Positions 3,001 through 9,000 of a stretch of 62,562 nucleotides of DNA are shown piece after piece. Source of the DNA: a virus; the UHGV virus genome UHGV-0106067. The stretch is one strand, 5' to 3'. Position 1 is the stretch's first letter, and each line of letters starts with the position of its first letter. The position numbers were made by a program.

Positions 3001-6000
3001 GATTTTTAACAAATTCACCGCCAGCCAGACAATCATCAACTTGCTGAATTGTGAGGTATTTAAAAATTTCCCCGATTAACTGATACCCTGCTAACCACCT
3101 GTTGTTTTCTTTTTCAGCAACAAAAAAGCCCGCTCATCGGCGGATTCGGCTGCGTGGCAATGTAACCATTCTTATCATGATATGAGGATTTTTACGATTG
3201 TAAAATGTTTTTTAACTGACACCAGAATCATCATAACCGCGACTTGTTATAGCTTGCCTGTATGCGTTCATTTTGCGTTCTGCGTACTGGACAACATCTT
3301 TAATGACAAGCTTATGAACAACTGAAATAAGGTCATTTATATAACAAAAGTCAGGTGACTTATTTTTCACTGGCAACCAAATAACATCGTTCTTAATTTT
3401 TCTATTACTAACACTATCCCCCCATGAATATTTATGTGAAATAGACCTATAAATACATGAAATAATGCCCAAATAAGCAAACTTTGTCCTTCCATCCTCA
3501 TTGTTAACATAGAGTCGCAAATTATGACTGTCGTTTGAAAAAAAGTCTCGCTCCTGATAAGTTACAACGAATGTCTTACCACCAATAAAAATACAGTTCC
3601 CTTTTTCCAAGAGTGAGTCATCATAGGCGATATAAGAACTAACAGAGTTATTATCACGGCTAGCACAAAGATAAGGAACATCCCCACTATTTTCTATGAT
3701 GTCTCTAGACAATATGTTTCCTGTATTGCACACTGAGAATAACTCAGTAACAGGAAAGCCTGAAAATTCAATATTTTTAAAATGTTCCAGGATAAGATAA
3801 TCTTTTTCCGTTAGTTGGTAATCACTCAGCCCAGCAGCTATCAGGTATGCTTCCAGCTCTTCTATATGGGCCGCTTCCAGCTCTTCTATATAATTATCCA
3901 TAAAAAACCAGTCAATTTCATTATTTTTCACTGGTAATGAGATGAAATATTCTCCATCTCTGAGTTTGGAACTCGATAACTGTTGACCATAATTAAAACG
4001 CCCCTTTAAAGCTTTATTAATCATACTGGCAACATACAGTCCGCGCTTTGCATTAAAGTCGGACTTACTTGATTTTAATGTAAGAACATGCACCTTCATT
4101 TCTACGCTGGCACAATAAGGATGATAAAAAGCATCTCCAAAAAAATTAACGCTTATAAAATTTTCATAATGTCTTGCATCATCCATAAACTCGGTATCAA
4201 ACTCTCCGATGATACCGTTTTGATCGCTCTTTGCTGAAACACGTTTGATTTTGCCTGGTTTTAATCTTCCTGAGGAGATAAGCGAGCCTGTGCTCACATA
4301 GAACAAATCGCCAATCCTGAACTCTCCCCACTCAACGCTTCTTAATTTATCGCTGAGCGGGGAATTTACTTTCCCGCAAAATTGTTTTCACCTTGTTTTT
4401 TCAGTAATTGCGAGACCTCCCATGCAAGGTAATCACCTACCGTCTTTTTGAAATCCTCCAGCGTTGGCCTAGCATCTACTGGCCTGGTCTGATTCCAGTC
4501 CTCACCACTATCAGGATCGATTGTTCCCTCAAAATATTCATCCTCCGTAAAGATATTAAGGCAACCTTTCCCGAAGTGAACCAGATCCACAACCTCCTGA
4601 TAACGCTCTTTTGCACGATCGGCATCAACAAGATTGTTTCTTGCCTTTTTGCGATTAGAGCGAGCGTAGCCGTCATTGGAAAAGTCGATAAACTTAACAG
4701 CCTGTTTCGCGTTATGCGGAATTTTTACCTGAAAAACGTAAATGTACGTCTGAACGCTTGATTTACCAATAAACAGATCCGCAGGCATTTTGATGCTTGC
4801 CAGCAAGGTATTTTCCTTGAGTATTTTTTTGTTGTACTCCGTAGCCTTTCCTGTGCCAGCTGAACTCTGGATAATCACTGCAGCATAGCCTTTATCCATC
4901 ATCGACAGCGCCTTCTGCACGAAAATCATGCCGTTACCTTTAGCTGAATACGGAGGATTGAGAATAAATGCGTCCGCAGGGAATTTTTCTCCTGTTTTCC
5001 CAAATCCATACTTGCCGTCAAAATCGGCCAGCGAGTCTTTATTGAGGATATTCGAGCTACCATCCCCCATCAAAATCATATTCAGGATGGCCAGCATATA
5101 AATACTGGATAACACCTCAAGGCCAAGAAGCTGTTCAGCCTTGATTTGCGCTTCCTTAAGTTGTAGTTCGTTCGGTGAGTGAATATTTTCTCTGGCGTCA
5201 ATGAGCATTTCATTCATTGCAGCCACAAGCAATCCCGCAGAACCTGTAGCAAAATCCCACACATAGGAATCTTTGTTTACTCTGGCGAGTCGTGCCAGCA
5301 ATGTGGCAACATAAGGTGGTGTCAGAACGACGTCATTGAGCTTGTCCTGCGTAAATCCAAGCCAGCGATACATCTCATTAAACAGTTTGCCCGTAAAATC
5401 GGTGGTCAGTCCAATTTTGTAATACTCCCCAAGATCATCAACAACTTTAACAAACACGCGCTTTAACTGGCTTTCACCGTTGACTGGTTTGTTAATGTTT
5501 TCAGTCCACAGCGTATTTTGCAACGAGCGCAAAATCATTTCTCTTTTTGTTTCAGGAACAGCTTTCAGCCTTAAAAAGTTCCTTATTTTCCTGAAAATAA
5601 TATCACCATCACGCAAGTCCTCCTCCGTTGAAGAGGTCAGTTCTTTTTTATCCAGCGGTGCTAACTTTCCCGGAATCCCCAACGTTGCAATAACGGTAGC
5701 CACAACAAGGTAAACACGATCGCTTTCACCAAGCCCCTTTTCATTCTGGTAAATATCGTTATTCAGACGGGAAAGTCGCGTGTCTATCTCTTCCTCTTTG
5801 CTGGCCTTGATTTTTTCCAGTTCTTCGGGAGGAAGATTAAGCAGCTTTATCTTGTTGAGAAATCCATCAACATTTTTGTCAGCAAGGAACGATAAGTCGG
5901 TGAATTCACCAACCTTCTGTCCGGCTCCTAAATTATTCTTTGATACGTACCACACGCCGATTTCATGATGCAGTTCGCCTGTACCATCATCGCGCCAGCC

Positions 6001-9000
6001 GGTCATACCAATAGCAATAATATCAGGGTAATTGGTGAACTGAAGAAGTGCGTTGGCATAATGGACTGCGCCATTCACCGCGTATCCATTAATATTTTTA
6101 AAATTCCATTCTTTTCTGGCATCTTTGTTCTCAATAATACCGTTGCTGCCAAGTCTGATAAGCCTGTCCTTGTAGCCTTTATACTCGATGAGAACGGGAT
6201 ACTGCTTGCCGTATTTGTCCTTAACAAGGAGTTTTACGTCGGGACGATTACCGCCTGCGCCGCCATTTTTCGAAAAATAAGCGTCCAGTGCGTTATCGAT
6301 CTCTCCGTTAAGTGATGCATTCTGCAACTTGTAATCAAGCCTGTAAGATTTAAGCCATGAGTTCGCCAGTTCGGTAATTTCCGGCTCAACAGATTTTACA
6401 GACTTTCTTGATTTACTGCTGGTCGCTGGTCGCTGGTCGCTGGTCGCTGGTCTGGCAGCATAAAATCATCCTTTTATGAAAATCAACGATTTTTGAGCAC
6501 TCGCACACAAAAAATTACCGCATTGGTTGCAACGACAACCTGCATTTTGCGGAGCATATGACAAATAAAGTACGGGTGCGTTGAGGATGCCAGACACATC
6601 AGAGGTGGCGGGAGATTACTCCCCTGCCTGGTCTCTTACTTCTCAGATTCGTAGTCTACGAAGACAGCGACCTCCGTCTGGCCGGTTCGGATTCGTACCT
6701 CGCAGAAGTCTTTCCTCGTTACCAGTGCTATCACTACGACGGTAATACAGATGACGATCAGGGCGATTAACATCGCCTTTTGCTGCTTCATAGCCTACTT
6801 CTCCTTGCCTTTCGGCACGTAAGAGGCTAACCTAAGTTTGTAAGTCATAGATTTGGCCTCAGATTAATGTTAAGCGTCCTGCAAGACGCGTAATGTTAAC
6901 TGGGGCTTTTCTCTGTCTGCCTTACGGCTGCATGCCCGAGGCAGACAGCCTCAAGCACCCGCAGCTATTCTACAGTAAAAACTCGCGCTTTCAATTTCCC
7001 GCACGTCCGGCAAACTGACTGGCCTGTGATCCTGATGGTTCACGCTCAACGTACCTGTCCATTTCCAGCTTTACTCCCTGCATGATCAACATCCCCTCAA
7101 TAACACCTTCTGCTTTTTGCAGTACCCGCCCGGCCCAGCAATCAGAGCGCCCATGCTTACGGCCCAGTGACATAAGCGTCATCCCGAACACATAATAATC
7201 ATACAGAAAATCATGCAAATCGCTGTTGTTGACGTTCAGTTGCGCCATGCAATTGCTGATAATCAGCGCATCGTCATCGGTACACTGAGGCCGTGATTTA
7301 ACCTTTGACGGGATCAGCCCCTTAAATCCGGCGGCAATGGGCGACCAGCTCACATCCTCATGATTATTGGCCACCCATGCGCCCCAGCGTTCAAGCACCT
7401 GCTGAATATCACGCATCAGAGTCTTTACCCTTATCCCATCCACGATGGACCATAAGGACACCGTTGACGACGGCGTGCCGTTTGCCTTCTTTATCGCCAA
7501 TATATTTTCTGACCGTGGCACGATTACAGTTCAGTATTCGGGCCACCTCGGTCTGATTTCCATATGCCTCAACAAGCATGTCAGGAATGATTTTTACGGT
7601 GAACGTCATGCGGCCTCACTTCTGCTGTTTCGCAGGCCTTTAAATTTCTGTTGATACTCTGCCTTGATCGCCTTGCACTCTTCGACAGTCCAGCGGTGGC
7701 GACTATGGTTTGATTCGATTTCGTCTACTGCTTCCTGCCCGATGCGGTTAATCAGTTCGACGCGATACGGAACGAGATTTCCGCTTTTGTATTGGTTACA
7801 CACCACGCATTGCTTATGGATATTGCGTTCATCAAATCTGAGCTGAGGTGCCGCAGCTGTTGTACGGTAATGGCCAGCATCCCACTGGGCTGAATCTAAC
7901 GTCCCGCATGAAACACACGGCAAATGACGGTCCCGCTCCCTGATATAAGCATTCACAGCCTGTTGTGCCTGCTTAATCCAGTAACTGCGGGGCTGTAAGT
8001 CCCTCCTGCGCGCTTTCAGCTTGTCTGCCTGCTCTTTTGCTGAAGTTATCGCCTTTTCTTTTCTGACCAGTTCCAGTGCGCACTGACCACAGCAAACTTT
8101 CTGATATGAGCGGAACGGCACAAACGAGGAGCCGCACACTTTGCATTTTTTGGGTTTACGTTGCTTCATCATCACCTCAGAAAAACGACAGCAGGCGGTT
8201 ATTCAGTTCAGGGCTGTTTGAGCGCCCAAACACATGCTTTAACGCGGCATTAATTATTGCGTTGTAGCAACGTTCAAACTCATCCTGATCCATATTCGCG
8301 TAACTCAGGCTTTTTGCCCGATATCTCACCTCGCCTCTTATGGTTGTGACCACATCATAGAACCCGGCAAGAATTGTCAGATTTTTACGAAACTCATCAA
8401 ACTGCGTCGCTTCATCAGAGAATTCGTATCCAGCATGTTCAGCGCACCAGTACTGAAAGCAGAAATTAAGAAAAGCGAACATCTTCCGGTGAAAAGATGG
8501 GTTACGGGTAAGTTTTGCTTCCAGTGTATACAGCTCACCGTTTTTAAATTTTGCCAGTCGGGGTAAATCGCGCTCATACGCCGGTACAAATACGCCATTA
8601 GCCGCCTTGATCATCTCTATTTCCATCAGGCAGCCTCCGCTTTGAATTTGCGCGTCAACACATGTTCACGGGCTTCACACCCCTGAATGAGCATGTCGTT
8701 AAAATCCGGCAAGTCAGGCCAGCGAATGCTGACCTTCTCAACGTCATTACGACTCATGAGATTCTTATGCCCACATTTAAAGGCAGCCGCCAGACCTGCG
8801 CCGTGCTCATCATTGTCTGCAAAGATAATCAGGTGATTAACGCCTGGTGGCGCAATAAACTTCTCCATAAAACCGGAGTTCATTGTTGACCACACATTGC
8901 AGCGGAAGATTTGACGGCATGAAAGCGCAGTTTCGATACCCTCGGCTATCCCCAGAGTGGACGACACCGGATACAGGCGTATTGCCACCGATTTGGCATG

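Follow-up and report, generated by a model that had tools for sequence, protein, structure and literature searches.

A BcgI-like restriction-modification module of a lambdoid prophage with a probable frameshift junction between its two genes and a heptanucleotide repeat in its 5' coding region

The viral genome UHGV-0106067 (62,562 nucleotides, analysed over its whole length and hereafter called the window) carries on its minus strand two adjoining genes, A and S. We consider it probable that they form a BcgI-like (Type IIB-like, Type I-derived) restriction-modification (RM) module, carried as a moron by a lambdoid prophage of the Shiga toxin (Stx) phage type and equipped with three control devices in its sequence. 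The module per se is ordinary, since it is already annotated as BcgI-like and a phage precedent exists; the novelty lies in its anatomy once the gene boundaries are corrected. S appears to be made as an A-S fusion through a conserved programmed -1 frameshift, and A looks like a contingency switch of the neuO type, both of which we infer computationally.

A preliminary description of this region had read two open reading frames (ORFs) of 653 and 364 amino acids (aa) as a nuclease-methyltransferase fusion with a specificity subunit. The ORFs exist as described, at 4366-6327 (minus strand, 653 aa) and 3212-4306 (minus strand, 364 aa), each started mechanically at TTG, but both are truncated calls, and their sizes are not those of the full proteins. 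The conserved coding body of A extends over 4366-6417 (minus strand, 683 codons plus TAA), and motifs are numbered here on the 683-aa chain starting at 6417. The PD-(D/E)xK signature (NRPD 57-60, IEYK 77-80) and the methyltransferase (MTase) motifs (VVLTPPY 363-369, DFATGSAG 388-395, NPPY 487-490) are all present, the latter in the order X, I, IV of gamma-class MTases, and the MTase is HsdM-like. On the minus strand, the nuclease domain occupies 5803-6417 (D60 at 6238-6240, E78 at 6184-6186, K80 at 6178-6180) and the gamma-class N6-adenine MTase core 4939-5346 (motif X at 5311-5331, motif I at 5233-5256, NPPY at 4948-4959).

Profile searches of the kind proposed in the preliminary description recovered Pfam N6_Mtase in A (4e-21) and Methylase_S in two stretches of S, while the PADLOC model REase_MTase_IIG matched A end to end (6e-228). 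Two further PADLOC models with the sizes of BcgI A and B, of 637 positions (3e-44 against A) and 341 positions (Specificity_II, 9e-21 against S), gave weaker matches than the IIG model, and A scored 36 bits against the NCBIfam hsdM equivalog, whose cut-off is 243. The earlier assignment to the BcgI-like family therefore agrees with the PADLOC models, as it does with the annotation of the related phage PhiR12_3. Searches of PDB sequences with the A profile and with the single A protein gave no matches, so that a comparison at the level of the fold was needed. The full-length AlphaFold2 (AF2) model of A had a mean pLDDT of 58; it was confident over the N-terminal 200 residues and poor outside the nuclease domain, which speaks against our reading of the whole chain, and a domain-only model was used for this reason. 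That model (pLDDT 77, pTM 0.78) has an alpha-beta-beta-beta-alpha-beta core with D60 at the start of a strand and E78-x-K80 in the following strand, and so provides the PD-(D/E)xK fold that had been predicted for the N-terminal domain. The domain identities and the nuclease fold are thus established by sequence and comparison; the module would presumably be enzymatically active and, on homology only, might cut on each flank of its site in the manner of Type IIB enzymes.

The absence of HsdR, also noted previously as an argument against a standard Type I system, holds for the 62.5-kb window, where no HsdR/Res translocase-like gene was found. The sole helicase-like ORF (9587-11107, 506 aa, ResIII/DEAD) is the replication helicase beside the primase, common to Stx2 phage P13374. 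Without HsdR, and with a nuclease domain in A, the locus is not a classical Type I RM system. Like a BcgI-like system it has nuclease and gamma-class MTase in one chain, an adjoining S with two target recognition domains (TRDs) and no translocase. It departs from such a system at the start of S, which has no initiation codon of its own. G+C content falls to 35-44% across the A and S ORFs against ~50% in the flanks, which fits an acquired moron.

A terminates in GCG GGA AAG TAA. The slippery heptamer G_GGA_AAG (X_XXY_YYZ, in register; 4369-4375, minus strand), the proposed -1 site, is followed at once by the A stop (TAA 4368-4366), and slipping by -1 here leads directly into S. The S reading frame, -1 relative to A, spans 3212-4369 on the minus strand (385 codons from GTA 4369), its mechanical start being TTG 4306. 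A codon listing found no ATG, GTG or TTG in this frame between the -1-frame stop at 4390 and TTG 4306, and from the A stop onwards it encodes GKVNSPLSDKLRSVEWGEFRIGDLF, matching the N-termini of homologous S proteins. In existing annotations S begins at ATT, TTG or GTG, or at an ATG further inside, or is divided into two genes. Records annotated as 'subunit S (x2)' with a pseudogene raised the possibility of a second frameshift switch within S; this was rejected, the S frame being intact in every genome. PGAP often splits an intact S into a coding sequence and a pseudogene.

The same arrangement was found throughout the homologous loci. A scan of one genome per species yielded 466 relatives, of which 80 loci were kept, from Clostridia, Bacteroidota, Cyanobacteria, Saccharibacteria, Gracilibacteria, Spirochaetes and Proteobacteria, with A ~70-73% identical. 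An in-register X_XXY_YYZ heptamer is present at the A stop in 88 of the 88 homologous loci examined. Among the 80 scan loci it is GGGAAAA in 55, GGGAAAG in 21 and AAAAAAA in four; six loci fetched via homologous proteins all end in G_GGA_AAR plus stop, and a second, diverged E. coli allele ends in GA A_AAA_AAG CAG TAA, with S in -1 and no start codon. These variants alter the encoded residues (GK to KK) yet keep slipperiness, the tail of A just upstream is variable, and such heptamers occur elsewhere in A at a background of ~1% per codon. S always lies in the -1 frame and is open from the heptamer. Where S is complete (74 loci), 35 have no ATG, GTG or TTG before the conserved Trp of the WGE strand, 23 have only an incidental GTG or TTG, nine have another ATG, and seven have an ATGA overlap. 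Two Leu positions of the linker are invariant in 82/82 sequences while all six Leu codons are used, which indicates that the linker is under protein-coding selection. Two homologous loci look degraded: in L121 the conserved Trp codon of S is replaced by TAG, and L074 keeps A_AAA_AAA at its A stop but has lost S.

Five nucleotides after the heptamer lies a 13-bp hairpin, the proposed frameshift stimulator (4325-4363, minus strand; -23.3 kcal/mol, z = -5.0, 0/200 shuffles as stable). It is present in nearly all homologous loci (median -19.3 kcal/mol, modal spacer of 5 nt) and it covaries: 93% of cells are paired, against 32-46% in slid controls, and double-sided changes number 44, against 7 +/- 4 in shuffles, with 0/500 shuffles reaching 44. 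One pair varies among UA, UG, CG and GC; in it a synonymous Leu position faces a K/E/Q codon of the opposite arm. Upstream, GGAG or GAGG stands 10-11 nt before the heptamer in 63/88 loci, compared with 2.8% of background windows. Heptamer, hairpin and upstream GGAG together make up the tripartite architecture of the dnaX frameshift site, and the sequence marks of -1 frameshifting are found: a heptamer in register, an open -1 ORF downstream, and a covarying structure within the usual distance of 5-9 nt downstream. The absence of start codons and the conservation and covariation of this recoding cassette are matters of observation; the frameshifting itself, and its efficiency, we infer.

On this proposal most ribosomes would stop at the A stop and release free A, while a fraction would slip by -1 on G_GGA_AAG and continue into S, giving an A-S fusion with the predicted junction peptide ...NNFAGKVNSPLSDK... 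The adjacent stop and the 13-bp hairpin, together with the upstream GGAG in most homologs, would promote the slip; free A and A-S would then come together as the (RM)2S unit known from BcgI and BsaXI. The separate S subunit of the preliminary description is accordingly probably wrong here, as S seems to be expressed as a -1 frameshift extension of A. Transcriptional rather than ribosomal slippage is unlikely, since most heptamers hold only A3-A4 runs. RM genes are not mentioned in the frameshift catalogue of Antonov et al. or in the review of Atkins et al., and a literature search on Type IIB enzymes and slippery-site frameshifting returned nothing relevant.

An A-S fusion has natural and engineered counterparts. 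A search of representative proteins returned many relatives of 840-1190 aa, some of them in-frame R-M-TRD1-CR-TRD2 chains and others R-M-half-S, and one 71%-identical in-frame R-M-S fusion reads through the A/S linker. The cryo-EM study of BsaXI divides Type IIB enzymes into RM+S and single-chain RMS groups and describes an (RM)2S assembly, with no mention of frameshifting (PMC11997821). In EcoKI, an engineered M-S fusion is functional in vivo and requires additional free M in vitro (Roberts 2012), and free A stimulates cleavage by the A2B form of BcgI. Taken together, the natural fusions, the EcoKI M-S protein and the stimulation of BcgI by free A make free A plus A-S a sensible mixture of products.

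Several features of the junction nevertheless weigh against frameshifting. The upstream element of the window itself is weak (AAGGTG at 13 nt), and the hairpin of the second E. coli allele begins only ~1 nt after its heptamer. At the codon overlapping the A stop, the seven ATGA loci apart, most of the 74 have ATA or GTA, so that termination-reinitiation could contribute to S synthesis. This is the main rival: reinitiation at the overlapping ATA, GTA or ATG (A_ATA_G, A_GTA_A, A_ATG_A) would give a separate S, the hairpin would block independent initiation, and no frameshift would be involved. It may also coexist with frameshifting, but as the full explanation of the junction we regard it as rather unlikely. 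It fits the classical ATGA overlaps, it has a parallel in EcoKI, whose hsdM and hsdS are translationally coupled via a 1-nt overlap, and it would give a separate S subunit such as purifies with BcgI and BsaXI. However, ATA and GTA are very poor initiators, and a single TAA-to-TGA change would create an ATG at this codon, yet only the 7/74 loci have it. Moreover, the ATGA loci retain the heptamer, as do L109 and the second E. coli allele, in which it stands one codon ahead of the stop. The spacing of the Shine-Dalgarno (SD)-like element (10-11 nt) and of the hairpin (5 nt) is that of -1 stimulators.

The 5' boundary of A also required revision. The translation start region AAAAGGATGATTTTATG (6459-6475, minus strand) contains two ATGs in different frames: ATG-a (6469-6467), with no spacer after the SD sequence, and ATG-b (6461-6459), with a 7-nt spacer after AAGGA. 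The A frame is open upstream of TTG 6327 and through a heptanucleotide array. About 35 N-terminal positions of the PADLOC REase_MTase_IIG profile are unmatched by the TTG-started A, and homologs from Neisseria, Providencia and elsewhere begin M...S(I/V)EPNIADLANGWLKSY.LDYKLEQ, a segment which the window encodes (SVEPEITELANSWLKSYRLDYKLQ) between the array and the TTG. In the homologs from Neisseria and Providencia the ~30 residues ahead of the TTG position are conserved; the segment is predicted as a confident helix, and N19, W21, L22 and S24 are invariant. The conserved helix implies that the TTG 6327 start is an artefact of ORF calling. Database proteins start MLPDQRPATS... and MILCCQTSDQRPATS..., giving in-frame (DQRPATS)n N-termini from both ATGs. 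Neisseria homologs (P0042 versus P0104/P0088) differ by 1-3 copies of an in-frame 9-nt repeat encoding SNK at the position of the E. coli array, which suggests that this spot is prone to repeat expansion.

The array itself, (GACCAGC)x5, lies in the 5' coding region of A (6418-6452, minus strand; 5.0 copies with 100% match in TRF) and encodes (DQRPATS)n. Translation of A would start at ATG 6461, with good SD spacing, or at ATG 6469, with poor spacing, and then cross (GACCAGC)n, so that slipped-strand gain or loss of units would set the frame of A. In a frame simulation, copy numbers of 0 mod 3 are ON from ATG-b, those of 1 mod 3 are ON from ATG-a, and those of 2 mod 3 are OFF. With n=5, both ATGs of the window are out of frame with A, translation meets a stop after 21 or 18 codons, and the gene is OFF. 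A repeat census of 23 loci (the window, PhiR12_3 and 21 complete genomes) gave arrays of 31-99 units in PhiR12_3 and the complete genomes, hence 5-99 across the 23 loci, of which 12 are OFF, seven ON(a) and four ON(b); viral contigs added n = 3, 9, 16, 19, 34 and ~100. The flanks of the census loci are ~99.9% identical, most of these loci encode an identical A protein (WP_001178557.1), and S is identical in 13/16 compared, so that the array evolves far faster than its surroundings. The frame arithmetic and the variability of the repeat are therefore established, and the guess of the preliminary description that the enzyme could act as a phase-variable switch was borne out by the census. The array has the sequence marks of a simple sequence repeat (SSR) contingency locus, with a unit length not divisible by three, a position between start codon and coding body, copy numbers that differ among near-identical strains, and both ON and OFF alleles. 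Switching of A between ON and OFF would follow from this arrangement.

Against the switch stand the following points. The frame states are set by n mod 3, in arrays as long as 700 nt, so that assembly errors would misassign them, and six arrays contain imperfect units. A copy number of n=83 (581 nt, OFF) recurs in four unrelated records, PhiR12_3/ECOR13, G6/7, UCPROB-002 and O111:H8 7-32 9A, which is odd for a fast-evolving array and could reflect a favoured length, the recent spread of one phage, or an assembly artefact; the n=5 of the window could likewise be an assembly collapse. A near-even spread over the three frames is also expected from a non-coding variable number tandem repeat (VNTR). 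Finally, a restriction enzyme turned ON in an unmethylated cell should be toxic, and we identified no mechanism that would protect such a cell at the ON switch.

An exact-pattern scan of GTDB genomes, one per species, for the junction of ATG and repeat gave no matches. The SSR seems confined to Escherichia-type prophages, which a set of one genome per species does not sample. Neither the repeat nor its peptide was found in the literature searched, and the text of a REBASE survey of SSRs in hsdM genes is without Escherichia or heptanucleotide repeats. An opposite-strand 'YXWGXW repeat-containing protein' or hypothetical protein (336-768 nt; PGAP, L002 and L036-L048) was discarded as a translation artefact of the array, because its length tracks n. 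In an unrelated context, three IMG/VR sequences (L010, L017 and L025) have GACCAGC arrays of 9-12 units after ATGTGTGGGCGAAGC, followed by ACCAGC hexamer repeats, and in these no long ORF follows in any frame.

With both boundaries in hand, one may ask whether a conventional two-subunit system would suffice, A starting at TTG 6327 and S at ATT 4315, TTG 4306 or GTG 4297, the array being a non-coding VNTR leader and the heptamer merely encoding a conserved Leu-Gly-Lys C-terminus. RefSeq and GenBank annotate just these starts, a GGAG stands 8 nt upstream of ATT 4315, the frame distribution among the census loci is near even, and the staphylococcal system of the Sau42I type does have B as a separate gene, started at an ATG with an SD of its own and lacking a heptamer. 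These starts, however, would remove helix 11-24 of A, found in every homolog, and the LxxKLxxVxWGE strand of S, which is under coding selection. Nor do they suit a heptamer whose residues vary while its slipperiness is kept, or the 35/74 loci that lack any canonical S start, and they leave the hairpin and the upstream GGAG unexplained. We therefore judge this joint account, including its reading of the heptamer, improbable. It is very improbable that the module of the window is an inactive remnant in decay, a pseudogene put out of frame that now serves neither phage nor host. A is indeed out of frame here and in 12/23 loci overall, and one homolog has a stop inside S (L121) while another has lost it (L074). 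Yet the bodies of A and S are undamaged, and identical or nearly so, in all the E. coli loci examined, the sole differences between loci are in the number of repeat units and are reversible, and ON alleles are common (11/23).

The two TRD-like halves and the EELEA duplication proposed earlier for S are real, the former being the two Methylase_S matches and the latter a true 24-nt tandem unit. The repeat (3848-3889, minus strand) encodes IEELEAAH twice, the second unit being partial, in the central spacer helix. There are two copies in the window, three in strains SCU-104 and KY173, and 1-4 among E. coli and Salmonella alleles, which also carry exchanged TRD1 and TRD2 modules. Specificity would thus be diversified between strains by TRD exchange and by 1-4 IEELEAAH units, whose copy number should set the gap of a bipartite recognition site. 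In EcoR124I and EcoR124II, a TAEL repeat in the central helix of S changes the length of the recognition-site spacer.

A is ~70-73% identical even when E. coli is compared with such remote organisms as Microcystis, Saccharibacteria, Gracilibacteria, Bacteroides, Clostridia and Spirochaetes, indicating very wide and recent horizontal transfer. In two loci (L054 and L055) A is carried on a Mob_Pre/TnpV element. Staphylococcal BcgI-like systems (28% identity) have a B with a normal ATG and SD and no heptamer, so that the cassette defines a subfamily and not all BcgI-like systems. We think it fairly probable that a large, mobile BcgI-like family lacks an independently translated S and may use a dnaX-like -1 frameshift to give RM-S and free RM, to which E. 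coli prophages add a neuO-like switch with two starts.

With Escherichia phage PhiR12_3 from ECOR13 the window shares 99.9% identity; in that phage the large gene is already noted as a 'restriction enzyme BcgI alpha chain-like protein'. The module occurs in 30/5,426 complete E. coli genomes, chromosomal every time. The gene order is NinG-NinH-Q-hok-A-S-nanS-p-lysis. Stx2 phage P13374 shares the backbone cI-cro-helicase-primase-DUF1367-NinG-NinH-Q followed by stx2AB, a nanS-p homolog, holin and lysozyme, so that the module occupies the stx slot. The placement in this slot given in the preliminary description thus stands, but replacement of stx does not: in E. coli 2013C-3033 (L137, 1-674) the module, OFF with ~58 units of which two are imperfect, lies directly upstream of stx1c subunit A, so that module and toxin are not strict alternatives and share one late-region slot. 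A Providencia prophage carries a 72%-identical homolog between antiterminator and holin genes.

Upstream, the slot is bounded by antiterminator Q (6991-7416, minus strand; Pfam Phage_antitermQ 1e-47, RefSeq homologs of 426 nt). Directly after Q, a consensus scan found a candidate pR'-like late promoter, TTGAAA-16-TAGAAT (6967-6994, minus strand; 10/12 matches), which would act as such to judge from its position. Just past this promoter, a hok/sok toxin-antitoxin locus lies between Q and the module (6636-6960, minus strand; HOK_GEF 7e-22 at 6636-6791, Rfam sok 118 bits at 6786-6960); hok is annotated as frameshifted in two genomes (KY173 and DETEC-S792). The scan detected no terminator-like site between hok and A, so that hok transcription might read into the module. 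It also found no convincing sigma-70-like promoter there, a point against our account of the module's expression, which consequently has to be framed as putative transcription of A and S from pR' and/or by read-through from hok.

Downstream of S the scan found a terminator-like hairpin with a T-run (3129-3144, minus strand), and the slot is closed by a nanS-p-like sialate O-acetylesterase gene (628-2601, minus strand; DUF1737-SASA-DUF6645 by Pfam) that matches ORF47 of P13374, downstream of stx2B. Between S and this gene lies a full-length match to the Rfam small RNA STnc100 (149 bits; 2809-3025, minus strand), ending at a terminator-like hairpin at 2819-2840. Related prophages have Ile and Arg tRNA genes and a methyltransferase remnant in this interval instead; no tRNAs were found in the window. 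Elsewhere, a fragment annotated as 'type II restriction enzyme BsuBI' lies beside cI in PhiR12_3 (L001 17200-17502, about 13250-13560 of the window), and P13374 has a DNA methylase and a restriction endonuclease at that place (L136 13073-14556), so that a second RM system may be, or may once have been, part of the window phage. The ORF at 13463-14374 of the window scores as a ClpP-like SDH protease.

Should the frameshift be real, annotation of the S genes throughout this widespread family is wrong (truncation, splitting or ATT starts), and RM joins the few bacterial processes known to rely on programmed -1 frameshifting. It would also explain a fixed RM:S ratio, with (RM)2S assembly hard-wired in one mRNA, and may be relevant to the 'incomplete' appearance of predicted Type IIB S subunits; in practice it matters for expressing such enzymes and for predicting methylomes. 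SSR-based phase variation is rare in E. coli, and to our knowledge the heptanucleotide switch would be preceded among phage-borne examples only by neuO. If true, the switch makes the restriction barrier of the prophage and the genome-wide N6-methyladenine pattern heritable yet reversible in strains of the enterohaemorrhagic and enteropathogenic E. coli type (O111:H8; the stx1c phage), and could affect phage susceptibility, gene flow and possibly gene expression.

The closest precedent for the switch is neuO, a 'mobile contingency locus' that carries 5' heptanucleotide repeats in prophage CUS-3 of E. coli K1. The neuO repeat is AAGACTC, expression requires a copy number that keeps the frame, and the product is a capsule O-acetyltransferase. 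Arrays of the window type, by contrast, reach ~100 units, and their two start codons, lying in different frames, could allow three states of expression. Type III mod genes, Type I hsdM (ACAGC/CGAGA) and the Campylobacter Type IIG gene cj0031 likewise have an SSR in the 5' coding region of an MTase gene, but the window differs from these phase-variable RM systems in its heptanucleotide unit, its E. coli host and its prophage carrier.

For the junction, the models are dnaX, with the heptamer A_AAA_AAG, and lambda G/GT, with G_GGA_AAG. The homologous loci use the same heptamers, with a dnaX-like SD element ~10 nt upstream and a hairpin 5-6 nt downstream, and would likewise give two products in a fixed ratio from one mRNA; the difference is that the proposed shift joins two subunits of a restriction enzyme. 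The engineered EcoKI HsdM-HsdS, an active fusion that needs free M, resembles the mixture predicted here but is artificial. In EcoR124 the repeat unit of S has four residues, against eight in the window.

Among restriction enzymes, the archetype is BcgI of Bacillus coagulans, a Type IIB enzyme with a 71.6-kDa RM fusion (A), a 39.2-kDa S-like B and an A2B protomer. The module shares with it an N-terminal PD-(D/E)xK nuclease and gamma-class N6-adenine MTase in one chain, a two-TRD partner, the lack of a translocase and similar sizes, but sequence similarity is only distant, and it is another PADLOC model, a IIG one, that A matches best. The A/S frameshift cassette of the window subfamily and the 5' repeat switch of the E. 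coli phages have likewise not been reported for BcgI. The preliminary description had called a restriction enzyme on the late transcript of a temperate phage unusual; a BcgI-like RM system on a converting temperate phage has a precedent in Sau42I, the published system of the S. aureus phage phi42 (Dempsey 2005). Like Sau42I and its phiSabovST1 relatives, the module is a BcgI-like RM system on a temperate converting phage near toxin genes, the phiSabovST1 copy adjoining lukEv/lukDv; in contrast to it, the Sau42I type (28% identity) has a B with its own ATG and SD that overlaps A by 17 nt, no heptamer and no SSR. With the BsaXI class (PMC11997821) the module shares the proposed (RM)2S stoichiometry, and in that class RM+S and covalent RMS architectures both exist, although BsaXI itself differs in its knob and paddle elements and its 916-aa RM chain. 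What would set the module of the window apart from that class is that both architectures would be obtained from one mRNA by recoding.

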